Shown here piece after piece: positions 14,296 through 59,947 of a DNA stretch of 64,000 bases (position 1 is its first letter; each line of letters opens with the position of its first letter). The position numbers were made by a program, and so were the translations under genes. Source of the stretch: Tubulanus polymorphus (lineage: Eukaryota > Animalia > Nemertea); NCBI RefSeq assembly GCF_964204645.1, contig NC_134027.1:2450485-2514484 (forward strand). The letters run 5' to 3'. The notes under the pieces are model-generated. The model was not told where the DNA came from and made no database searches. It saw only the letters and a program-made list of their open reading frames with translations.

Positions 14296-17200
14296 TCATA
14301 CTGATCTGTATCGACTTTGATTCACTCTACGACGAGACCAAACAAATGGCGATATTCCGATCATTAATATAGTCATACCGATCATAGGTCGATACATAAT
14401 CCACGAAATCGATATAATAGTCAAACTTAAACTGATCGATAAACAAACATTCATCATGTTCACTCCTAACACAATTATATCTCGTAAAATCGGTATCCAA
14501 TCCACTGAAAAATATAATTCATAGTTATATATACTAGGATCATACGGAGTTATTCTTACTAGTTATTACCCATCTGTCCATTTCTTGATTAACTTCCCGT
14601 CCAATTCTCATTGCGCCAGGGCATTAGGCTTTTCATCAAAAGTACCCCTTGGGGTTCCTTTTTGTCCTTTTTCTTGATTTAATTTTACAATGTACAAGTA
14701 CTTTCTTTAACTTTTTATTTTATGGAATATGATGACTGTATTTTAGTACAATGTATTGTACTTTACAATAAAGAAATAAACTTATAATAATAATGATAAT
14801 AATTCGAAGAACGCATTTTTAGAGTGATTTTAGATACATACGAAAAACTACTGAATTTACCTAATGTTGTTACAATATTCGTTAAACAGCCAAAACCTAT
14901 GAACATCATCAGCCAACCTCCAAACCTAAATGCCCACGTCACCAGTGTATTATGTGCTAGTTGTTTGTCAAATATTTCCTAAAATAAGAAGATGAAAGGA
15001 ACAGTTGTATTAGATTTCATCAGTCATGCATCTAGCTGGATCAGTTAAAGCAGCTGATTTTAAAACGTGTGAATGTACAACATTGATTTGGTCCATTCTT
15101 CCATGTGGGGCCAAATTAGAAGGGACTAAACTAGTGGCTTATGACCTGTGACTTTAGGACCTGTAGTTTCTGTACCTGTGGTGTATGTTCCCCCATATAC
15201 AATAATTCGATGTCGTATCCGTCTATTGTTGTTTGATATGATAGAAGATTGGTTCCCATTTGTCTTGCGATCACACTCACCTAGTGATAATCGATTTACA
15301 AAGCAATTAACATACATTATCAAACATAAGAAATAATATTTTATTGCATTGTGACTTACAGTGTCTGCCTTCTCACTGTCATCGGTCAGACCAGCGTAAG
15401 AAAATGTAACCTTGAGATCGCCAATCTGAAACATGTATACCTTATCATAATCTACACAAAAATACCCACTTGATCCAATTTATCAGAAATCTAGATTATA
15501 TATCATGTTTTACATATACCAGGTACATTTACGGTATAGGAGAACCATGGATCAGATCATAATCCAGATCAAACTGATCTGAATTAAGTGCGTTATAGCG
15601 TAGTTAAACATAGATTTACCTGAGGTCTTAATGGGTTTATACCATGGTAAAAATCGCCGTCATGTAAGATGACTTCTTTGTTCGCTGGGGCAGATTTTGG
15701 GAAGAATTTCTGAAAATCACTTATTTTCTCAGTTAGTCCTGGAAGAATGAAATGAAAGATTTTAAACGATCTGTGGACGATGAAATAAAAGGCGAAAACA
15801 AAACGAGATTCTATTCATACCGACTGATAGGTGAAAGTTTCCAACACGAGGATTTGCGGCGATGTCTTCTTTTGAGGTAACTGGAAATGATCTGCAATTG
15901 ATAATCAGCATCTGTTATTGTATGAACTACAGCTAAACATAAACGAGAATTCGAGTTCAAACGTACTGAGGATTATGATGTCCATTAGGATTATGGAACG
16001 ATGAAGATGAGGTCAGCTCTGAACTCCATTTCTGCGCTGCAAAATAATCAGATTTTTTTAAATTTCAGAATCCCAGCTGCTTGTAGTGAAATGAATAAAA
16101 CAATTCTGTATTTCTGTCATCCTCCCCGGCAGGGATTCGAACCTGATGGCATCGAGATTGCCACGGCACGAAACCCTGCCATAATCGACCGTGTGCGCAG
16201 ATACATGCGCAGTTCAGATGATGTGATTTTTAGCCAATCAGAAATCCCGTTTTATTTTAGCCCGGGTTTTCCCATTTATAGTTCTTCCTTGAAATTTGCC
16301 TCAACAATTATACAACGAGCAATCTGATTGGTGCCGCCAGTTTTCGTTCGGAAAGCTGCGCATGTACCTGCGCACCCGGTCTACTGATGCAGGGGTTCGT
16401 GCCGTGGCTGAGTGTAGCGATGCCATCAGGTTCGAGTCCCTGCAGAGGGAGGATGTATATCTGTATGCAAGTACTAACTGTATGAATAAGATGTTTCTAC
16501 TCTGGTTTGTCCATCCTCCTCAAATTCCCTAAAATCATCAAAATTTGTTCGTAAACATTTCTAAGTATTTGAAGAATGAGAAGCTATCAATGAAATACCA
16601 GTATTGTATTAGCATGAGGTGCTATCCATTAAATATTACCTTTTGGATTCTATTTCGACCCACTGATACATCTCAACATGGCGTTTTAATTTGATAGCAT
16701 TTACCGTTATATCATATTCAGCATCATGTACGGCCTAAAATGTTAAATCAGCAAAGTATTTAACAAGCTTAGATTAGTTTTTAAAAACTCTAAACGGGGG
16801 TAAGATTGATGAACCATGGACTTTTCACACAATCCCTCACTTTTCTTTAATTTTTTCACATGTTCATGATTTTTCAAATTTTACAAATTTTTTAGAAAAC
16901 ATCAATTTTTCACATTAATCTTCGACTCCTCGTGGAACTAGATACTGTCAAATAGGAGACAAACCTTGTCAGCACGAAGTGGGCCGTGGACGTAGATTAG
17001 TTTTCCGTTATTTTCCTTAAATGCAACCTCAAACGACTGAAAATTTCGAACTAAGTTGATTCCCTCGTGCAATGATTTCGAAGTTTTAACCGCTCGACCC
17101 TGTAAAAAGTGTAAGTGGGAGAATGCATTAATATGTGAATATGAATATGTGTAGTTTCAATTCAAAATACACACTTTTCTTTAATCAAACGCACCTCATT

Positions 17201-21943: not shown

Positions 21944-41882
<19,939 letters not shown>

Positions 41883-44144
41883 CACCGACCAATGTTTCGT
41901 TAACTGTCGTTAACTGGTATGGCCTTAAACAAAATGATGACTTAACGGTGTTCAAACGCATGGTGCTAAAAAAAAATAAAACGCCGTTAGGGGACACGAA
42001 TATGGCTGTCGTACCCCGATAGATGGCGATTCCGCAGATGCCGGCTAGGCCGTGGCTGATTCTTATTCCACTATACATTCTAGACGATGGAAAAAAATTG
42101 AACGGAACCTTTATCACTAAATATGAACGTTGATTATGTATACATTTTTTGACAAAAGAAAATGGTTAATTATTTTCTCTCTACGTGCAACATCATTCAT
42201 ATACGTATATACATATATATGTATATAAAATATCAATATATACCAACATTAATCAGGTGCCTATTTTTGATTCTTTCTCCTTTAATTTCGTTTAAATGTC
42301 CGAAATATCTATATATATATATATATATATATAAGTAACGTTGTGAATTCATACGTGTAAAAATGAATAAAAGTGAACTTATTTTTTACCGACAAAAAAT
42401 CAACAAGTAAGAGGCTTAATTTGCCTTTTGCTAAGAATGTGTCTGCTGGATTTAAACCAGCCAGTCTTAACAACCCTGAATAGTTTTCTTGTCGCTTGTG
42501 AATAATGAATGTTTTCCTCCGATAGTATTCTGTGCCTGCATGTTTTTTGACTTCAAAATGCAGGACCACAAATAAATAATAATTGCTCCAGTATTGTTTT
42601 ATAGGTGTAGGGAATTTCTTTTTCTGGGAACCGCGAACCAAGAACCATGACAGTGCTACAAACACTAAATCACTTGTAACAAAGGACGACATTTTCAATC
42701 TTTAATCTTGGTGTTCTCTCATTCTCTCTCTCTCTCTCTCTGTTTTTCTCTTGTTATATGTATTTATATAGAGCTATTCAGATAAACCGTTAATTTAACT
42801 CTCAGTATAAACTCTAACTCAGATGAAAATTTTCTCGTCAAATGATAAATTTGCAGGGATTTTATCTTCCGTTTCATTAATCGACGTGTTTGTCCTGAAG
42901 TGCTTGTGTATTTTTACGGTGTATTATACGAAAATCGAGAAGTGTGTATTAAAATGAAAGAGGTGGCTTTGAGCCTCTCGATCAATCTGTCGCATATAAC
43001 CCAGGTTTTGGCTGTGATGATTAACACGATGAATGTAGATATTTAGAAACTTGTAAATTATCGCCCCCTAGTGATGATTAGTGGAATGTTCACCTTCTAT
43101 TAAACATATTTCCGAATCACAGTCGATACAAATCTGAAGAATATTTTATTATCCTACGATCATTACATTTATTATTACACTCTCTTTATATTTCACGTTA
43201 AACAATATTATTTCATCTTCACTGACGAAATTTTTCCCAGAGCTACCTGACTGTATTAAAATAAATTGGTCTATTTAAAAAAAAAGGTTTCTATTTCTCT
43301 TGTTCGTTTCTCGTGCGTGCAAAGTTGAAGATATTTTTCTGAAAATGGGGAGCGCGGAGGTTGCACAAGTGCATTGTATAACCGATTTACAGAAATATTC
43401 CACTGAGAAGCAAAAGCCGATGGGAACCTCGATAATAATGCCATTGTTTGTTAAGTAAGTATATATTTTTATACGGTTAAAGTAAGTGGGGAACGACTGC
43501 GCCGTCGTTAGTACCAGAACAACGATTGGAATGTTAGACTAGTTGCTGGAAACATCCGGCGCGCAAAAGCCACGAGAGTGAGTCGAATGCTGGTCGAACC
43601 CGGGACAATCTCCGCGTGATCATCCATAATTCAGTATCGACATCAGAAGAACCATGCAAATAATATTTTTCATCTGTAACTCTTTTTCGAAAGTCTAAAT
43701 AGAGTATGATGGTCACTCACTGCTTCGTAAACCTGACATTATTGACAGTAACGGCTGACGCCAATTGAGTTAAGGTGTCGTCGTTTAGTATCCGTCACAA
43801 CTAAGCCCGCATGGCACAAGTTCACAAAGGTAACTTTCTTTTGGCCCCGGCGGCAGTCGGCACTCTCGAAATTGTAGTGCTCAAAGTAGATTTGACGCAG
43901 CAATGCGAGTATCAAGCAATGGTGTAGCTTTAAAAAGTTCAATACATCCATGATTACGATTTATATCTTTAAAAAAAAACGTTGCCGGGATTCAATGAAA
44001 TATCTCGAGATCCGGGCCCGCCACGGCGGCATCGAGAAAGCGTTGTAGCCGGAACCGTGTATTTAGTCGTCGTAGCCGTAGCCGTATTTTAGAGCTAACC
44101 AATGCGGTGGCAGCACCGTACGGTTATGAATTTTTCAGTAGGAA

Positions 44145-46408
44145 ATGAAGTTTACTCTTAGGAGAGTAATTGGCATCGTTTTAACTATTTATTGCATTTT
44201 TTCATTCTACATCGGGTATTTGCTTATTCTCAGAAACGCGTGCGAAACCAAACAACTGAGAGCCGCTGAAAATTCATTGAATTCCGGTAAGTTAACAGCA
44301 GTGTCAGTGCCAATTCAAATATAATTTTATTCATAAGAGAACGATGATAACCACACTCAAACGTGGTAAACGGATAATAAGTTAAAACCCACTATCTACA
44401 GATTAAAAGAATTTAAAAACAAGAATTTATTTATTCAATCTAAAATATATATAAGACACGACGTTTCGATCTCACCCTTAGATAGAGATCATCGTCAGGT
44501 GTGATCGTCACCTGACGATGATCTCTAGGGTGAGATCGAAACGTCGTGTCTTATATATATTTTAGATTGAATAAATAAATTCTTGTTTTTAAATAATTTT
44601 ATTCAGTCAAACATTTTGAAAGAGATAGAGTATAGACGTATTTTTTTCTAATTCTAGTATACGCAAGTGATTCCGATGATGAAAATGATTCAGATATCGA
44701 AGTTTTGCCGCCGCAACGAGAAAAACTTTATGACGAAAGAGAAAGTTTGTTGTCGACTTTAAAAAATGACAAACAACAAGAATCTGCACCTAGCCGGCCC
44801 CTGATTGAGATCTGGGGAAAGGCCGCTATAGGTAACATATCTATTTGAGAGAACGTAAATCTTTTGATAGATTGTGCTCAGATTATCAATATATTTCAGG
44901 AGGATATCTGTGGGAACACATTTTAGATGGAAGTTTAGAAGATGAAGAAGATGGAATGCGCATCTCAGGATTTCAACAACTTCGCAATTTTAATCTTAGG
45001 TCGGTTATTCCTATTGAAATGATGTCTCAATCGATGTATGAAGTTAATTTACTATTGGATGATCTAAGCTACTATTCACCCCTAAACTTCAAATACGAAT
45101 GTCATTTTACCTTTATAGTACAAACCGCTTAATTTGGCTCATTTGGGATTGATGAGATTAATCCAGTTTAATTAGGTTTATATGAAGATTGATCCACATT
45201 AAGAGGGTTTCACTGTATTATTAAACTTTTTAAAGATGAACTCTATGAAATGATGACTATGAAACTTAGGGCTTGGTTTTTAGGTATCGATCTGGTCCTG
45301 GATTCATTCAAACTACCGTTCCACAAGACATCGAAAATCTCGTACTCATCCTCAACGGCAGGGAGGATATTAAAGTGAAATTCGCTAAATCCTGGTTGGA
45401 TTATTTGCCTCGCTATAAAAAACTACAGAATGTCGGTGTGATATTGTTAGGAAATGAGCGATGTGACAATATTTGGATTGAGCCGTATTTGAAAAAGAAC
45501 GGTGGTTTAATCAAAGCTCTTTTCATAGTGTACGACAGTCCAGCAGTCGACAATCAAAGAATATATCAATGGCCTTTAGGAGTCGCGACGTATGTACTGA
45601 AATAGCTGTTTTACAGGGTGACCACTGACCTTGAAAATAGGGCAGGAAAACATTTGATTTACCTCTAGTTGTCACCCTGGTATTTCGAAACGAATGCTCA
45701 AATGGTTCTCTTGAATAATTATGAACATTCTATTTCAGGTATCGCTCTTTCCCAAAAGCTGAACTGACGTTAGCGGATTTAGAAACACCTCGTCCGTTTA
45801 TGTGCAATTTTCTAGGTACAGTTTATAAGAATTCTAGTCGAGAAACGTTGCTTCAAATCATCAATTCACACGATTTAGGCAAATATTGCTACCTCAAATA
45901 TAGAACTACGTAAGTATCATTCGGTAATTCAGTGACAGTAAGAGCCTCGCAAAAATTCGAGCTTATTAAAATGATCATCTTTCTCTCATTCAGATGGGCG
46001 TCCCAGGAATCGGATGATTCGATGAGTAACTATGTTAATGTCCTCGCTCAAAGCGATTTAACTTTAAACCCGATCGGTTTCAATACGGAATGTTATCGAA
46101 TCTACGAAGCGATGTCGTTCGGTTCGTTGCCAATAGTCGAGGATCAAATGACAGCGGGAAACTGCGGAAATTCATCGACATCGAAACACGCTCCGTTGAG
46201 ATTACTGAAACAAATGGGTGCTCCTATTATCTTCATCAAACACTGGTCAGAACTTCCTGCTCTGATAAAAAACGAACTTAAATTGACCGCGAAACAAAAA
46301 GCGTTACGTCGCAAACGGATATTTAATTGGTACGAAGGATTCAAATCAATAATGAGGGACCAGTTTCTGACTGTTTTAGACAATCATTTCTTTCATAATT
46401 TCTCATAG
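44145..46408 (+). CDS. RXYLT1: Ribitol-5-phosphate xylosyltransferase 1 (TMEM5)
   Basis: Exons 44145-44286 (signal anchor 'MKFTLRRVIGIVLTIYCIFSFY'), 44658-44831 ('IEIWGKAAIG'), 44900-~44999 ('YLWEHI'), 45283-~45589 ('VLILNGRE', 'LLGNERCDN', 'QWPLGVAT'), ~45739-45909 and 45994-46408 ('SDLTLNPIGFNTECYRIYEA'). Confidence 0.94.
44456..44502 (-). ncRNA. Minimal type-I hammerhead ribozyme motif (minus strand)
   Basis: ACAC-CTGACGA-T-GATCTC-tatctaagggt-GAGATC-GAAAC-GTC-GTGT. Confidence 0.8.
44509..44548 (+). ncRNA. Minimal type-I hammerhead ribozyme motif (plus strand)
   Basis: CAC-CTGACGA-T-GATCTC-tagggt-GAGATC-GAAAC-GTC-GTG; predicted cleavage after 44545. Confidence 0.8.
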
Positions 46409-46435: not shown

Positions 46436-46572
46436 CTGAAGCCGGTTGCTTAAAAGTTGGTTAAAGATTAGATAACCAACAGATAAATACCACAGTAACA
46501 ATGAACTTTTAATTTTCACTACGTCAACAATCCACCAGTTAACTCTAACCAACTTTTGAGCAACTGCAGCCT
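46436..46572. mobile_element. MITE, same family as 53337-53445
   Basis: Termini GTTGCTTAAAAGTTGGTTA / TAACCAACTTTTGAGCAAC and the shared core CAGATAAATACCA.AGTAACAATGAACTTT. Confidence 0.75.
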
Positions 46573-47842
46573 CTGGTCTTTAATAACTCATTTTGCTCCA
46601 TATACCTTAGTTTTGTTCATGTGATAAATATTGTATTTTGTTGTTACGTAAATATTCAATCATGTCGTAAAGTGCAATTTTTTTACCGCCATAGATTATT
46701 TTCATGCTTTAATTCCAGCCTTGATAGTTCATTTAGCTGTAGTGTGATTTTTTTCTAGTAAAATACTGCTAAATTGCCCTTTGAAAAGATCATGGAATTT
46801 ATGGATTCAAACCTTTAAGTTTGTACTCAATACTTCTAGTGTAATATTCACTAATGCATTTATGTCGTAATACTGGTGCTCAATAAATGTATTGCCACAT
46901 TGGATTTCATTGTAAATTCTTTTCTTGTTGCGGTTCATTACTTTATTAATAAGCAATAATTCGACAGATCCAGCAAGGTCGACAGTTTAACTTAAGATAA
47001 CTATATGATTATGTTATCTATCAATTTTATTTGATATGAACGTCTTGACAACACATTCTTACAATTAAAACATTAAGATGTGACTAATTTTATTTCAGCA
47101 CAGTATATTTCGTGATAGTAGCTGTATATATTGGAAGCCTCAAGTATTTTTGTCAGCAGCTGCCTTGAACATAACTACGAACAGTATTATGCGGATTCAT
47201 TTTTCGAATGCGTAAAAAGTTAAAACATGATAGATGTTGTACACAAACCAATCATCACAGACTGCTGCTTGTGGACGGAATACAGAGGCAACGTTTTTCT
47301 CGCCAAAGCATCATTAATCGAGATGGAGTGCCATAATTACTAGACGTTTACATATATTAGAATACAATGAAAGCCAATTGAAATACGGCAGTATCTAAAT
47401 GCAGTAGCCTTCATATAGCACATAATATCAATTGTGTTTGATCATAAAGGCTTAGATAGTATTACATTCAAACCACTTAACAATAAAGAAGTACCAGAAT
47501 ATAATATGAAGAACTCGATATGAACTTTCCATAGTAACGAAGCTTTAAGTTCAAACTCGTTTAAATCGTCATCACATCATTAAAGTTATCTCTATTTTTG
47601 AGTCCTAAATTGTTTTTCCAATTCGATCTACTACGGTAAGTATAAGTCGTCATTCAGATAAGTCATCGACATATTGATCATCCCAACAACAACGACATAA
47701 GCGAGTTTGACTGTCTATTACATAAGAAACCAAGAGCAAATCAAATCTAGGAAAACATGATTTTGATTAAGTAGTCATGAATGTAAAACGTTTAATTCAG
47801 TAATTATTAAACTAGGTTATAATATCAATCGGTACACCTCCC

Positions 47843-49627: not shown

Positions 49628-52600
49628 TTAAGAATCTGCGTTCATCGCTTGTTCTACTTGTTTAAAAAGTTCGGCAGCTTCTTCACTAGCAGAACACTGT
49701 ATGACAAACTGTGTAGCTTGTTCTACTCCAGCAGTCTGCTGTTCCTGTTGCTGTTTAATAACTATAGTTTCTGCCGGGTTAAGACTGGCTCCTCCTGTCT
49801 GCTGGAGGCTTATCGAATCACCCTGTTGAGCTTCTAACAATTCCTTTAAAAAGTTATACACACGTTACAAACAATAAAATTGTCAAGAGAACAAAGATGA
49901 AATAATAAGCATTTGTGAGGCCTACCTGCTGCTGGGCAATAATCTGCTGTAGAATGTTTATTGTTGAAACTGGTTTCGCATTCATTTCTCCTTCTACAAT
50001 AAATATAAGTATATATAAACAACTCCTCAATCGTAGATCCAACTATGTGTGTAGTTCTCATGATTTCTTACCATTAAATTGTAGTGATTCTAGGGAAGCA
50101 GTGGATTCAATTGATGGCTGATTATTACTGATATTTAACTGAACAACCTGTAAATACAAACATTCATTGGGAATGATTAACAAGTGGTTCGACACCAACT
50201 CAAAACATTTTTTACGAAATATTAAAAAGTTGATCGAAAGACTGAAGATTCAACTAATGTAAAAAGCCAGCAGTATTTGAATCTGCACTCAGCACTGATA
50301 GCGAATGCATAAGCATCTCACCTTATCCTGCTGAGCTACTGAGGTAAATTTATTTGTTTTACTTTCAAAAATGATGAGAATGGCAATAATCTATGGAATG
50401 TGCGAGGGATGGATCAAGCGAGACAGCGGATAAGCTGTTCGCTGGTCTATACACACCTGAGTTTCAGCGTTATCACTGAGTGTTGTAGTTGCCGACCCTT
50501 CAGCGCTGACCATTACATTATCACATGACTCGAATACACGTATATCTTCAACCTCCAGTAGATGTGCATCGCGTAAATGATGATGAATTAATTCAACATT
50601 TTCGAACAAACTATCGCACGATAAACATTTGAACATCTTGAAAGAATCGAGTTGTTCCGTTGTCGTCGTCGTCAATGCTGTAGCGGTGTTGTTATGGTAA
50701 CGATTGTTATGCGTCCGTATAGCTCCGAGGGCGTTCGTTGAAAATTCACATTTTTCACATCGATATTGTTTTAAAACCTCGTGTCTCGTCATGTGTTTGA
50801 CGAGTTGACTCTTCTGTTCTGCATTATACGGACACCTGATTATAAAATCAGATTGTTATTCTATATCAAAAGAGGTGTCTCTTTTTTGCTCCATTCAACT
50901 CAAGTAAACGAATAAACAAATACAGTCTATCCCGCTTAATTTGGATCATTTGGAACCGACGCAATTCATCTGGCTCATGAGAAATATGGATTAAACACGT
51001 AGGTGCACCTCAAATATTATCCATATCGGATCAAAATCTGCAGGAAACTCTAAATTAATCAGGTTTGACTATTAGACTTCAGATAAATCAAAATACTTAC
51101 TTGGTACATTTAAAAATACGTCCGCCATTTTTATGAGTGCGAATGTGGCATCGTAAAGCTGTCTTTGATTTGTATTTCTTATCGCAGTAATCGCACTGTA
51201 ATAGTTTCGTATTATAATGTCTCAACATGTGTATTTTCAGGTTATTGATATTGCTACTCGTGTGCCGGCACAATTCACATCTAAACGTTTTCTTTGCTTC
51301 ACGCGTGCAAACATGTTTCTGAACATCCGTACCATTTTGCGCGACGAATACCCGATCACAATTTGGACACCTGTTTACTCGTCGACCTAATGAAAAGTTT
51401 TTTCAATAATCAAACGATTTGTAAATAAATTTTGACACACGGTGGTTATCCATCGGATATGTACTCACTAATATTGATGGATCTTTGAACCTCATCTCTG
51501 TTAAAATCTGGATGTTGAGTCGAGATGTGAACGTTCAACATTTGCTTACTGAAAAATTCAAATATAAATTACAAAGGAAACACCAGCGATTCATTAAGGG
51601 ATCTATAGCAGTACACTTACTCAGTAAACCTAGTTTTACAGACAGGACAATCGGATTTAGAAGACTTGTGTTTTTGAAGATGAACCCACAGTTGGTAACG
51701 ACCAATAGCAGTAAACGAACAGGCTTCCTCTGTACAACTGTATTGAATGTATTCGTGATATTTCTCGATATGACGCATCAGTGTTCCCTTGTTTACCGCA
51801 TGATAATCACATTTATCACATGGAAATGGTTTGTCACCTGTAAATAAATCAACAGTTTTAAGATTCAAAGATTCGTATTATTACTGATACCGCTTCGATG
51901 AGATTTATGCTGGCATTCTATACTGTATAGGCCAAAAAAAATTGATACCTTGTTTCTCCGCTCTGCTGAGCTTAAATGTTGACCCGGCCGGCCACCTATC
52001 TACCCTATACATTACTTTTTTTTAAATCGTGATCAATTTCACCATAGCAGACCCGGCCGCTATAGAAATGAACTGTTTATAAATTTTATCATATTTTACA
52101 AAAATGACCCGGCCGCTGCGGAGAAACAAGGTATCATTTTTGTTTAGCCATAGCATTATGACTGACCTGTATGCGTAAACAGATGAGGTTGAAGATCAGT
52201 AAGATGATTAAACAGACGTCCACAGTACTGACACTCTTTATCACCGAACATCTCTTTAATCTTATTCAATAGATCCGTGTTCAACAAATGATAATTCAAT
52301 TTTTCATAAATATCGTACGAAAACATCTGAGTTCTTTCATCGATCGTTTCATCCTCAGTTGTTCTCCGATCCGAGTCCGCTGAGGCTTCGATTAAAATAT
52401 CAGTTTCATCGGCGGCGCCACGTAGAATCGATCGTAATTGTTCAGACTCGTCGACCGTGGCTACGACGTCCGATAGACTTCGAGTAGAATCTTTAAGTAA
52501 CGTTGTCGTTTCTTCACTCGCGCAATTGTCGCTAGTTTCCGGTGGTAGTTTTTCCAAAAGCGAACAATTCTCTTCCAGCAGCGACGGTTGATCTGTTGCG

Positions 52601-55341
52601 AGTAGATCGATCGTACCGTCCGGCTCCGGTAAAAACAAACTCGCGTTAATACACGAATCAAACAAGTTCGATCTGATTCGTTCGTCGGATGGTTGCGGAC
52701 AGTTCTCCGACAAATGAAACTCGTCTAGATGTTGATTTAACTGCGCGGCGCTAGCAAACCTCAAACTGCAGATCGCGCAACAATAGATAATGCGATGTTT
52801 TTGCATGTGATATTCCAGGTAACGACGTCTATGCGAGCTATAATCGCAAACCTCGCATTTATACATTGTTTGACGTACGGAGAGTTTGTGAACGAATAAA
52901 TGTCGATCGCGGTCGATTTTCTTTTTGAATTTACGATTGCAGACGTGACACTGGTGTAACACGGCGCCCGCCGAACTCGCAGTTTGTCTCGATAGAAACT
53001 GTTGTAAGTAATCGACGCCTCGTTGGTTCGAACCGTGATATTTACGTACGTGATTTATCAATGATTTCAGCGTACTGTAATCGTTTTGACAGATCTCGCA
53101 TCGATGTCGTTCGGCGTTGTGAATCGATTCGTGATCGATCACATGACTGCGATTCACCGATTTAAAATCGCACGATTTACAGCGGTAAAATTGTCCGGTG
53201 TGCTTCCGCATGTGTGTATAAAGATTCCCTAAAATATGAAATTTTTCAATTTCTTAAAGACTTAAGACATAAATTCAAGAAGTTCCGAGGAAATCAAGAT
53301 TGAAATTCCCCAATTTTTGAGTCCAGATAATATATCCTGGGGTCAGTAGCTCAAAACTTGGTTAAAGATAACTGGCAGATAAATACCATAGTAACAATGA
53401 ACTTTCAATGTCAACTCTAACCAACTTTTGAGCCACTGGACCCTGTGATCGCGAGAGAAATCCCACAATAACGAAGCCAAGATTGAAAAATTCTATATCA
53501 GAATGATTATATTTGAGGAGCAACGTTTCGCCTGTACGTCAGGCCTGTCACAGTACGCTCATGATGGCTAACAGTTGTTAGCCGAAACGTCGCTCCTCAA
53601 ATATAATTTTCAAATATAGAATTTTTCAATCTTGGCTTTGTTATTGTGGGATTTCTCTCGCGATCACAGGGGCCAGTGGCTCAAAAGTTGGTTAGAGTTG
53701 ACATTGAAAGGTATACGCTTACCTTTTGAGTTCGATGTATACGAACACTTGGTACATTTGAAGGGTTTCAGATCAGTGTGAGTTAAACAATGATGTCTGA
53801 TATGAGACAACGATTTAAACACTTTATTACACGTATTACACGAGTAAATCGTTAATTCCTGCGAACCTCGACTCGTTTGGACTGACGTCGTTTCATTCAA
53901 GTCTTGCTCGATCTTATGAACTCGAAACATGTGCTCGAAACTGCTGATTTCGACGTTTAAACTGTCGTCGAATCGACGTTTTTCGTCGTCGGTCGCGAAA
54001 GTCGGCGCTTCACTGACGCGAGGAATCACGGAATTCTCTAAAAGCGAAGCCGGGTCGTCCGGTATCGATTCTAAGCCATTGCTTAATTCGATCGTTACGG
54101 CTGGACTCGGTTCGACGTCGTGATGATTCTCTCCGATAGAATCTGCGTCGTCTTTTCGGTCGGTAGAGCCGCGATGAATCGGATATCGAGTACGTTTTTG
54201 TTTTTTCAGCGGTCGTTCACTTTTCAGACGAAAATCACCGTCTTCATCCTCGATTTCATCCACATTATCATTTTCCCCGGCGGACGCAGCAGCAGCAGCA
54301 GCAGCGGCAACAACACTGTCATTATCAGAATCACACATCGCTTCATCCACATAATCAATACCTGCTAAACACCTGTGCGTTTTAAAATGGCGTTCCTTCA
54401 AAAAACTCTTCTTGCATTTTCTGCAGCTGATTTTTCCATTTTCTACAATAAATATTTAATCAAAATGATCACAAGCATGAAAATTATTTTGAACGAGGGG
54501 AAAAATTTGTAAAATCTGTACCTAATATTAGGGGTAGTTGTTGTTCGGCTTGTTTTTGGATGACTGGAACAGAGGGCTTCGTATCAGAATCTTTCACTTT
54601 TCTAGGTCTTCCTCTTTTTCTGTTGGATACTTGAAAATAAAGATTTCGGGATTAGAAAACTATTTTATTATTTTCAACGGAAACTTTTGAATAAATTTGA
54701 CATTCAATAAAATTTACCAGCCGGTTTTGATATCAAAGAATTCATCTGTAAAGTTCCGACATTCTCTGATACATCCAGAATAAAGTTGCCGCCGCTATCA
54801 TTGATAAGAATTCCATGAATGCTCGCTAATGCACCTTCTGATATTTCATTGGGCAAACAACAAATCTGTTCGGCTTCTTCAGTTTCTACAAGGAGAGGGC
54901 ATTCACTGTATTAGGGATGCCATCAGCAGCACCGAGAAGATTTAAAATTAGAACAAGAGACCAGGGCAGGGGCCAGTTAGTTGCAGTCAAGGCTTAAGAT
55001 TTGAATCCAGTGACTGCAGTTAAGTGTTAGTGTAATTAAAACAGTGTTATGTGTTATGTAAGTAACATAATGGGCTGTGTTATGGGCAGGTTAGGTACAT
55101 ATCCATTAGGGACACTTGCTCCCTGGACTCTAGGCCTGTGCAGCAATCGCTTGTCAGCTGTTTGTTGTATTGTTAAACAGGTAATTGTGATTAGCCTACC
55201 GATTGAATTTGTTTGTTCCTTTGTCTGCTGGGTCTGAGGTGATTGAAAACAACCGATATTTTTGTGGTTAATGAACAGTTGTAGATCAGTGAATGATTCG
55301 TTGCAATCTCCACAAATATGCGTATCAAATCCCATTTTCAT
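49628..55341 (-). CDS. ZFAT: C2H2 zinc-finger and AT-hook protein, ZFAT-like
   Basis: Isolated N-terminal finger 'HICGDCNESF', AT-hook 'RKRGRPRK' (~54600) and the finger cluster 'YSCNTCNKVFK...KPFKCTKCSYTSNSKGNLYTHMRKHTGQFYRC', which follows the ZFAT pattern. Further fingers extend to ~50560, then a Q-rich tail and TAA at 49628. The start codon is approximate. Confidence 0.75.
51930..52149. mobile_element. 220-bp MITE copy 1 (PIF/Harbinger-like)
   Basis: TIRs GGCCAAAAAAAATTGATACCTTGTTTCTCCGC / GCGGAGAAACAAGGTATCATTTTTGTTTAGCC; 3-bp TSD ATA. Confidence 0.88.
53337..53445. mobile_element. MITE, same family as 46436-46572
   Basis: Termini GGGTCAGTAGCTCAAAACTTGGTTA / TAACCAACTTTTGAGCCACTGGACC. 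Confidence 0.75.
53402..53710. mobile_element. Long palindrome centred on degenerate HHR motifs, in a ZFAT-like intron
   Basis: Arms ~53402-53530 / 53583-53710; centre CTCATGA-T-GGCTAAC-agtt-GTTAGCC-GAAAC-GTC; tail TTATTGTGGGATTTCTCTC. Confidence 0.8.
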
Positions 55342-56859: not shown

Positions 56860-57730
56860 ACTGGGCCTGTTGACAGTTGTTGATGGAAAAAGTCGCACGA
56901 TTCGAATTTTATATGAAATAATTTATTAAAACGAAACCACAACGTTTCGACTGTTGGCTGATGGCCATCATCAGGTGGAATGAACAGAAAACAGAAGTAA
57001 TGTATGTAGCATAGGCCTATAAACTTACAGGACATAAACAAAAGTGATGTGTCAGAATAAATGTAAACAGAACAAGTGACAGATGAAAACAACCAGGGGT
57101 ACCGTACCTTAGAAACCACAAAATTCTATGAACAGTTCAGGATGAATACAAATTATGTAACGGAGTGAAGTCGACCAGGGGGCCGAGTAGAAGAGGACGG
57201 AGAAGGCAGTGTGACACAAAGTGACATTAACCAAAATCTAGTAGAGAGTGTTGATATCTCTAGATAAACAATTGATTATGTGGCTGGAGGTGGTAGATAA
57301 GTTGGATTTCGAAAGTTTACAAATAAGGGCTGATTCCACTGTGTCTCTTATGGATGTCTTTACAAGGATAAATGAGTTTCGAATGTTCAAATACTTCTTG
57401 CCAGATAATTGAACAGTGAAGCAGTGTTCGATTCTGAAATGGGAAGCTGTTGGTTATTCCGTAATGATTGTATTATATATGGAATACGTTTTCTTGTTGC
57501 GACGAGTTTTTGGATTGCTAGAGATGGTCTTTGCTGAATTTCGGTAATGGTTTTAGTAAGAATCAGATTGTAACATGGATGTTTGAATTGTTGAAATGCT
57601 GTCCAGTATTCTAATAGATGTGTGTAGTAGCCTATAGAAGTTGTTTGCAATGATGTTTCAGAAGTTATGAATGATGGTTGAAAGATTCCAGCCTGGGCCA
57701 AGATGATTGGAATTATCTGATTTATCATCG
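56860..57730 (-). mobile_element. Decayed Penelope-like retroelement 3' fragment (post-RT region, GIY-YIG C-terminus, HHR-bearing 3' end)
   Basis: Frameshifted peptides 'AFQQFKHP...IPYIIQSL' and 'FEHSKLIYPCKDIHKR/TVESALI' resemble PLE C-terminal motifs. They are followed on the same strand by an HHR and AATAAA. Confidence 0.55.
56937..56978 (-). ncRNA. Minimal type-I hammerhead ribozyme motif
   Basis: CCAC-CTGATGA-T-GGC...GTC-GAAAC-GTT-GTGG, with a 4-bp stem I and a weakened stem II. Confidence 0.7.
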
Positions 57731-57835
57731 CAACATTGCTAAATTGAACGCAATGTGAAGAATTTCCCTAACGATACCAATAAACATCTTGCTTTTCAGA
57801 TAGTGACAATGAAACACGCTTGTTTTCAACAATAG

Positions 57836-59947
57836 TCATGTATTTAACATAAATGAAACTTGTTTATTTCCAGATTTATATTCTAAATGTGACACATAAA
57901 TTGATGTGAATTCATATTTAGCACCATCTTCAGATACTAGGAGTGCCTGCAAAATAATACACAAAACATGAATATTTCGCCCTCAACTGTAGACTTTTAT
58001 TTTCAATCCACACCCATTTCCATTGTTACCTTCAATTGCTGTAACCTTTCACACGTAAAATATCTTGAAAAATCACCAAGACACCAAGCAAAACTAAGAT
58101 GCAGTGAAGGCTCCTGAAGTCAAACAATGAAAAGTTGACAAGACGAAATCGGAATGGACAAATCTTTTTATATTTCTTACCTGATAAAATACTGGTAAAT
58201 GATATTCTTTCAGGACGTCATCTAAAGATGATATTATTTTGACCAGGTCATTGTGGCCATAACTAACTTTTAAACCAATGAATGTTCTGAAAATAATTTC
58301 CAATGTCGATTCATAAGATCAAAAGTCCATATTATAAAATAATCATTTCATCTATTTTATCGAAATCTTTGAATCAGTACCTTGTCTTTTCCTCATTCAC
58401 ATAGACATCTAGATCATCCAATAAACATGTAAACCTGTAAACAGTAAACAGACGTTCAATAGTACGAACAGCTCAGTGTGCAAACACAAATATCTTAAAA
58501 AGAAATTTACACTGAAAAAAACCCACAATAATGAAGAGAGAAGACTGATCGACTTAATTTCTATGAGCCTTTTTTAAAACAGAAAAGGAAAAATGTTCAC
58601 TACTCTCTTAGTTGTTCTGCATAGGCCTAAATGTCAGTTATTATCAAAACCAGTGTAAATTTCTTTCACCGTAAGGCCAAAAAAAATTGATACCTTGTTT
58701 CTCCGCTCTGCTGAGCTTAAATGTTGACCCGGCCGGCCGCCTATCTACCCTATACATAACTTTTTTTTAAATCGTGATCAATTTCACCATAACAGACCCG
58801 GCCGCTATAGAAATGAACTGTTTATAAATTTTATCATATTTTACAAAAATGACCCGGCCGCTGCGGAGAAACAAGGTATCATTTTTGTTTAGCCTAAATA
58901 TTTTAGTTTTTTGTTCATTTAAATCATATGTTGTCACTTGTTGTCGTTGGAAACTTACACTCGTATATTTGATAATGCTTCTCTTATGCTATTCATTAAT
59001 GGCGCAATAATGTGAAATCTGATTGGAAATGTTTTTGTAACGCTGATGTGCGGAGTTTCAATCAGATGAAAATCGGTTATATCAGACACCTGTTGTAAGG
59101 CTGTCCTCGCAAAATCTTCATAATCGCAATCAACTTCAACTACAAATTAGAAGAATTTTCAATCCATACAAGTAATTCAAATTGTAGTGTCCCTATTACT
59201 CTTCGATTTCTTAAAAGCTTCTTCTAGACAGAAAATGTTTTTAAAGGTGCTTGTAACTACTTCTTTAATTTCAGCAGATTCCCTGAAACTCCTTAAAAAC
59301 TCTTTCAATTTTGAGAAACGCTTAAATCAGTACAGTTGGTATTTTTTTCACTCAATTAGGCGGTTAGAAACCGACTTAAGTAGTGTAAAGGATAAAAACT
59401 TGCTTAGAAAACCACCAAATCAATAGTTTACTAAGATGAACAGTACCAATTTAGGAGGACTCTACTGTAATTGCGATGCAGACACTTCCTCAAAATTTGA
59501 AATTTTCTCCTTTAAAAAACTCCTTGAACCAGGAATGACAATCAAATTGTTGGCCCATATCTTACATGGAACATATACATAAGTTGCCCAATTTCCTCTC
59601 TCATGTTGAAATGTACGTTTCCTTCCTTTGTGGTTTTCACTATTGTCGTAATTTTGTCTCTCCGCAGATTCCTTGATTTCGGTTTCTCGATACATACATT
59701 TAACAGCAGCAGGTACCGACGGCAGCCTGTAATGCGAAAAAATGTGCTGTTGAAAAGTAAAAGATAAGTGCAATAAATAATGCTGATACATTGTCAAATG
59801 TACTATTCTTTACCTTTCATTTTCAGCAGAAGTTTGGTGAACTTCGCTCCGATGCTGAGAAAACGATTTGACTGATGGTTCACCATATTCATTCTCATCT
59901 TCAGCACCAGATGAATCTGAACTATAATCGACCAAACTTCTTTTCAT
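57836..59947 (-). CDS. USB1: U6 snRNA phosphodiesterase USB1 (2H family)
   Basis: 'MKRSLVDYSSD', 'HKGRKRTFQHERGNWATYVYVP', two HxS motifs ('PHISV', 'LHLSFAWC'), 'YVNEEKTRTFIGL' and 'KSGNK'; TGA at 57836. Confidence 0.95.
58675..58894. mobile_element. 220-bp MITE copy 2 (PIF/Harbinger-like)
   Basis: Nearly identical to 51930-52149; TSD TAA. Confidence 0.88.

Follow-up and report, generated by a model that had tools for sequence, protein, structure and literature searches.

The window analyzed here is a 64,000-nucleotide stretch of the genome of the nemertean Tubulanus polymorphus (contig NC_134027.1 of RefSeq assembly GCF_964204645.1, positions 2,450,485 to 2,514,484 of the forward strand). 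The feature under study lies within intron 1 of a gene identified as RXYLT1 from Pfam matches of the flanking exons to RXYLT1_N and RXYLT1_C. When exons 1-4 were spliced, 242 of 244 residues were the same as in the Tubulanus polymorphus protein record P0001. The runs compared with the window (X1 to X4) are contigs, all from one study. One X2 contig is spliced over three GT..AG introns of RXYLT1, and its splice joints set intron 1 at 44287-44657. The components of the locus are given below, where HHR denotes a hammerhead ribozyme, PLE a Penelope-like element and TSD a target site duplication.

44287-44657, plus strand: RXYLT1 intron 1, of 371 nt; subtracting the insert and a single TSD copy leaves 99 nt
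44321-44333, plus strand: left copy of the TSD, 13 bp, ATAATTTTATTCA, a direct repeat
44334-44383, minus strand: tail of the PLE type, extending the minus arm at its 3' end and marked by loose ends and depth steps in contigs
44384-44504, minus strand: pLTR body of the minus arm, comprising the HHR and an AT-rich 3' part; starts TCA like other family copies
44456-44502, minus strand: minimal type I HHR of the minus arm, with a 4-bp stem I and a 6-bp stem II; predicted cut after 44460
44505-44508, no strand assigned: junction filler of 4 nt, head to head, read from the sequence
44509-44548, plus strand: minimal type I HHR of the plus arm, with a 3-bp stem I and a 6-bp stem II; predicted cut at 44545/44546
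44509-44592, plus strand: plus arm, a pLTR copy without tail that ends before the 3' ends of the family
44593-44605, plus strand: right copy of the TSD, 13 bp; an X1 contig covering 44565-45400 spans this junction with 0 differences

The original prediction had bounded the element at 44411-44594, an interval that is too narrow. Given that the 13-bp repeat stands at both outer edges, the insert corresponds to 44334-44592 (259 bp) and is asymmetric, with the minus arm running 77 nt past the hairpin. The TSD is perfect (13/13) and is the sole word of at least 7 bases common to the two flanks; ~2000 random pairs of the same sizes drawn from the window gave no common 13-mer. Both outer junctions were reached by X1 contigs with 0 differences at a depth of ~26. 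Since this depth equals that of both upstream haplotypes combined (17 + 9), the data suggest that the X1 animal is homozygous for the insert, and X1 is possibly the source sample of the window. Among the contigs listed, none spans the center of the RXYLT1 copy without differences.

Two minimal type I HHRs of opposite polarity were found with the parts and at the places originally described. In the plus arm, the stem I strand CAC (44509-44511) is followed by CTGACGA (44512-44518), one unpaired U, the stem II strands GATCTC and GAGATC, GAAAC-GTC up to 44545 and GTG at 44546-44548. The minus HHR is the same motif read from 44502 to 44456, with a stem II loop 5 nt longer. As had been claimed, the arms (44411-44501 and 44509-44594) differ at this loop only, being identical apart from the 5 extra bases of the minus arm. 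The rod-like hairpin that had been placed in RXYLT1 intron 1 is likewise present, as a near-perfect structure of 184 nt with a folding energy of -139.6 kcal/mol (z -26), and none of 200 shuffles was equally stable. AATAAA is present in the arms of this hairpin.

The HHR core pattern has two matches in the window against 0.02 expected, and at least two matches occurred in 0 of 100 shuffles. In the Rfam search proposed as a check on the hammerhead call, no family reached its gathering score over the whole window. At E values up to 10, the region 43500-45500 gave 13 matches, none of them to a hammerhead model; these were miRNA, sRNA and snoRNA models far under their cut-offs, the best of which mirror the hairpin only. 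It is thus the pattern and covariation, and not Rfam, on which the HHRs are identified. Covariation was assessed with a small set of 10 aligned, related motifs, 8 of them distinct, in which 5 of the 10 rows had been fetched with stem II fixed. Within this set, compensatory changes affecting both partners occur at 8 of 10 pairs in stems I and II, and pairing is kept in 93.5% of 77 cells. No shuffle in 500 scored as high, and slid controls reached at most 45.5%.

As described in PMC4209133 (Cervera and De la Pena, 2014), the minimal HHRs of metazoan PLEs have a short helix I, a long helix II, an unpaired 5' base and a G10.1-C11.1 pair, together with a palindromic 15.2-16.2 and no loop III, and dual motifs on opposite strands, ~100-700 bp apart, are reported in the same source. 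The RXYLT1 motifs share the helix I and II features, the palindrome and the lack of loop III. Here, CUGANGA, GAAA and NUH occur in type I order, stem I is of 3-4 bp and stem II of 6 bp, the palindrome is ACGU, and both the unpaired 5' base of helix II and the G10.1-C11.1 pair are present. By contrast with the published pairs, the two motifs lie a few bases apart. Helix II has 6 bp where that of Schistosoma has 7-8 bp, and for the combination of CUGACGA with GUC, mispairing of the core is predicted even within one isolated arm.

The repeat that carries the HHR arms is a high-copy family. Contigs aligned to 219 bases of the minus arm numbered 915, 233, 290 and 174 in X1, X2, X3 and X4, respectively, and the summed depth in X1, which is not a copy number, was >100,000 on the minus arm as compared with 25.8 on the flank. 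The form with a stem II loop 5 nt shorter accounts for 83,679 of the 104,761 of X1 summed depth. On the tail side, family copies end at ~44340-44346 (distal) and at ~44373-44384 (proximal), 30-40 nt apart, the proximal end being blurred because the RXYLT1 copy departs from the family at 44382-83. Unrelated sequence precedes 44509 in 60, 21, 21 and 15 contigs of X1 to X4 (agreement 0.43-0.47), and its consensus ends in CTCA.

Joints between copies were also compared. Among the 12 non-splice joints listed (38 more joints lie beyond the listing), 8 fall at 44507-44513 and 5 at exactly 44509, the latter from different left points of the inverted 3' part. For the minus arm, 6 of the 14 joints listed switch strand, 3 of these at 44501/44502; none of the 14 is a head-to-tail joint of the circle or tandem type, although contigs show presence and not absence. 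A few contigs have other centers, with 4 bases omitted at 44505, 5 omitted at 44501 or 2 added at 44506, and in other copies an inverted piece, truncated to a varying extent, is attached to a forward copy beginning at the HHR. Given that the inverted junction varies from copy to copy, the palindrome was likely rebuilt at each insertion and not copied as a unit. Letters that are minor in the family are common to both arms (e.g. 44553 and its mirror, 44452), and the arms thus came from one source. The insertion is young, its arms being identical bar one indel and its TSD perfect.

A pattern scan of metagenome contigs revealed five loci (L001 to L005) with nearly the same HHR, and the HHR pattern had 0 matches in viral contigs. 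At one of the five, L005, which belongs to another organism, a near-identical HHR lies ~210 nt past an ORF of the RT/GIY-YIG type.

L005, 8-1698: RT/GIY-YIG ORF of a PLE, frameshifted
L005, 1860-2000: pLTR, with a possible splice acceptor, TATA box and initiator-like motif just before the HHR

In Pfam, this ORF matched GIY-YIG with an E value of 1.4e-4 (22.5 bits against a cut-off of 22.6) and RVT_1 with an E value of 0.0097, under the cut-off. Both ends of the minus arm at 44384-44504 align with the pLTR of the L005 element. In L004 and L005, a TCATT stands directly before stem I and is preceded at a distance of ~28 nt by TATATAAA; these two loci have the upstream pLTR sequence in common, and L001-L003 lose it within ~10 bases of stem I. 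The metagenome relatives and the window arm also have in common a GTGGG motif close to the 3' end. No ORF of the family was found in the window. From these sequence comparisons, the repeat is most likely the HHR-bearing pLTR of an EN+ PLE, the link to an ORF being drawn from one of five metagenome loci in another organism. The Penelope-type family appears undescribed in the literature searched: no paper named both Tubulanus and Penelope, and of the 3 papers listed for Nemertea and hammerhead none is on this subject, as judged by title and start of abstract.

Related structures occur elsewhere in the window.

24164-24384, both strands: head-to-head HHR insert of a second family, with a 15-bp TSD at 24149/24385 (span 24149-24399)
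~53402-53710, both strands: third HHR-related palindrome, with 87% arm identity and ~40 bp of central filler
~39259-39380: solo copy of the 24.2-kb family, tailed and truncated at its 5' side
56974 (region 56935-58100), minus strand: lone minimal HHR, ahead of which lie a TCATT-like motif and ~1 kb of what may be decayed coding sequence

The insert at 24164-24384 has a 35-nt tail on one arm only. Its plus arm starts at stem I and contains an intact-looking minimal HHR (CTGAAGA core, GUU site); its minus arm is cut inside stem II. In the palindrome at 53402-53710, the plus arm has a damaged core (CTCATGA) and the minus arm stops at GAAAC; the left flank of this palindrome resembles 46445-46578. 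No TSD was found around the 53.4-kb and 39.3-kb copies. The sequence at 56950-58100 was considered as a candidate remnant of a PLE ORF, some residues resembling a GIY-YIG end by eye. This candidate gained no support: neither its ORFs nor three read-through frames gave a Pfam RT or GIY-YIG match, no homologue was found, and tblastn with the L005 proteins over the whole window gave a best E value of 0.68, with no match at the remnant.

Repeats of other kinds were seen in the same window. RXYLT1 intron 3 holds a high-copy repeat (45053-45098) with a summed depth in the thousands and loose ends on both sides. Older degenerate inverted repeats at 16118-16455 and 26113-26374 (65-68% identity) are MITE-like, with no HHR core seen. 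A dispersed repeat of 221 bp, present at 51929-52149 and 58674-58894 with 98.6% identity and short terminal inverted repeats, is likely a young MITE, and a low-complexity repeat of the (CT)n/(CCTCT)n type extends over ~850 bp (37230-38090) with strong GC skew.

The Penelope-like origin suggested in the original prediction is upheld by the TSD, the tail on one arm, the head-to-head pLTRs and the RT/GIY-YIG neighbor in L005. In the scheme for PLEs given in PMC8557442, an inverted 5'-truncated copy lies beside the pLTR, and a 30-40-bp tail is present at one end. The RXYLT1 insert comprises inverted, head-to-head pLTR copies, has a 30-40-nt tail on the minus arm only (35 nt at the 24164-24384 sibling) and is flanked by a TSD in AT-rich DNA, of 13 bp here and 15 bp at the sibling. 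For Pen2a of Adineta vaga, PMC3846280 describes head-to-head pLTRs, a tail and TSDs of 9-10 bp (Pen2/Pen2a), and leaves the question of the template open. Such EN+ PLE units resemble the insert in their head-to-head pLTRs, their tail at one end, their TSD and the HHR within the pLTR; unlike them, the insert has no ORF between the repeats, consisting of two pLTR ends alone (259 bp), and its TSD is 13 bp. In all, the 259-bp insertion with its 13-bp TSD very probably represents two head-to-head, HHR-bearing pLTR ends of an EN+ PLE, with a hairpin that was likely made at insertion and ribozymes that are predicted to be inactive.

The capacity of the two ribozymes for cleavage was assessed by folding. 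According to PMC4209133, minimal HHRs lack a helix III and depend on another copy of the same sense to form one, and no cleavage was seen in vitro with one motif by itself. At the RXYLT1 locus there is one sense HHR per strand and, with the copies lying head to head, transcription passes through the antisense arm before it reaches the HHR, whichever strand is read. When the whole insert was folded, neither strand left the core free (P unpaired at most 0.003), consistent with the earlier suggestion that each HHR can be masked by its antisense arm. Freeing the core would cost 32.7 kcal/mol on the plus strand and 29.4 kcal/mol on the minus strand in transcripts ending at or just after the cut site. 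In the isolated arm, the core GACG is predicted to pair with CGUC (P 0.93-1.0), and no ACGU helix III is predicted in the best two-copy fold. In the form of the palindrome, both ribozymes are predicted by these models to be inactive passengers, and the likeliest effect predicted for RXYLT1 pre-mRNA is ~90 bp of intronic double-stranded RNA and not cleavage. The single sense HHR per strand, the need for a dimer, the mask-first order and the sequestered core together argue for a PLE stub as opposed to an ambisense viroid-like element.

The repeat might instead be a non-autonomous HHR element of the retrozyme or SINE-like kind (short RNA or circle), trans-mobilised by a PLE, in which case the RXYLT1 copy would be an inverted double insertion. 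This explanation, which departs from that of a PLE stub only by invoking a short master copy of its own, is considered improbable. The start of many copies does coincide exactly with the HHR 5' edge, before which the sequence is unrelated, and the failure to find a family ORF in the window would fit. A 2026 preprint (10.64898/2026.07.22.740005) derives animal retrozymes from PLE pLTRs, and its non-LTR retrozymes are, like the insert, short, non-coding and PLE-related, with a type I HHR. Retrozymes are, however, defined as tandem arrays with an HHR per unit, head to tail in those of the preprint, and no such joint occurs among the 14 listed here; the RXYLT1 locus is inverted and so falls outside this definition. 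The TSD, the tail and the inversion are marks of PLE insertion, and upstream of the HHR the sequence of L004 and L005 continues as pLTR, leading in the case of L005 to the ORF.

The hammerhead arm of avsunviroids holds HHR sequences of both polarities in one rod, as does the insert. Unlike that arm, the insert is genomic with a TSD, and its complementarity reflects duplication of one sequence and not two co-adapted ribozymes. A functional ambisense switch or viroid-like agent, in which RNA from either strand would alternate between the masked rod and an active HHR or be replicated in circular form, is judged highly unlikely. The two intact cores, one motif per strand, and the great stability of the rod are what such a switch would have; yet, with arms so nearly complementary throughout and the mask made first, no window for folding is predicted, the single minimal motif is inactive in vitro according to PMC4209133, the junctions differ among copies, and viral contigs gave no match. 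Being short, AT-rich, high-copy, palindromic and TSD-flanked, the insert might also be taken for a MITE or another DNA transposon with long terminal inverted repeats, to which an equally slight chance is given. This reading is largely refuted by the asymmetric ends, since the 77 extra bases on one side mean that the inverted repeats are not terminal; in addition, the TSD is not of fixed length (13 bp here against 15 bp at the sibling), and most family copies are single arms or truncated inverted parts. An assembly fold-back artefact is scarcely credible. Although no listed contig spans the center without differences and X1 may be the window's own sample, the flanks are unique on both sides, a TSD is present, the arms are asymmetric with a 5-nt indel, X1 contigs extend at full depth to the outer junction on each side with 0 differences, and the spliced X2 contig joins the exons on either side. 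The feature is real and is most likely the stub left by an ordinary PLE insertion. The description of a young, non-coding ribozyme element thus stands as to its youth, given the one indel and the perfect TSD, and its lack of coding capacity, but not as to a distinct ambisense or avsunviroid-like identity.

The formation of such a PLE stub can be explained by the following model. The PLE RT-endonuclease would nick each strand of an AT-rich target, the two nicks being staggered by 13 nt. One nicked end would prime cDNA synthesis at the distal start to give the tailed minus arm, and the other would give rise to the shorter plus arm, either by second priming or by fold-back copying of the first cDNA. 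Second priming would perhaps be aided by likeness of target and template, the TSD and the element's own continuation being alike at 9 of 13 bases, which in AT-rich DNA is a weak, post hoc hint. Copying would halt at the HHR 5' edge, which implies that the template RNA was uncleaved. In RXYLT1 pre-mRNA, the antisense arm would emerge first and zip up the HHR. The plus arm ends before both usual family ends, which a simple model with two starts does not predict. For the Poseidon element of Anolis (PAc), PMC11167929 reports cutting and extension of both strands in vitro, and HHR cleavage that needed protein and was not required for insertion. The insert resembles PAc in having an ATG where stem II begins, 3' ends ~105-160 nt downstream of the ATG, two ends separated by a tail and an AT-rich target; unlike in PAc, the ATG frame closes after 15 codons and no protein is encoded.

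The HHR 5' edge may reflect a transcription start or a stall of the RT. That it is the 5' end of a short RNA started from a TATA/initiator inside the pLTR is plausible, if somewhat short of an even chance. More tentatively, and rather doubtful as a whole, the stubs might be full-length copies of a short RNA started by the 3' pLTR's own TATA/initiator just before the HHR, with the RT-endonuclease priming twice, once per nicked strand, and running off the RNA 5' end. A TATA/initiator-like pair similar to that of L004 and L005 is described for Pen2a of A. vaga in PMC3846280. Penelope of D. virilis is described in PMC2377424 as having a TATA-less internal promoter with a start well upstream of the intron end, and the HHR edge is therefore not generally a start site. 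A literature search combining Penelope, pLTR, promoter, transcription start and TATA found no paper.

The motif type, the head-to-head layout and the opposite-strand pairs are already published for PLEs, and the locus has little value for ribozyme discovery; in genome scans, such stubs are apt to be flagged repeatedly as ambisense ribozymes. The high-copy PLE family, with its sharp 5' edge and two 3' ends, instead provides natural products with which inversion and tail formation can be tested. If true, the run-off reading with twin priming would favor a sense template over the antisense self-priming model left open in PMC3846280 and would show uncleaved HHR RNA to be the template in vivo. The genome of this nemertean would then contain very many natural read-outs of the formation of head-to-head Penelope junctions.
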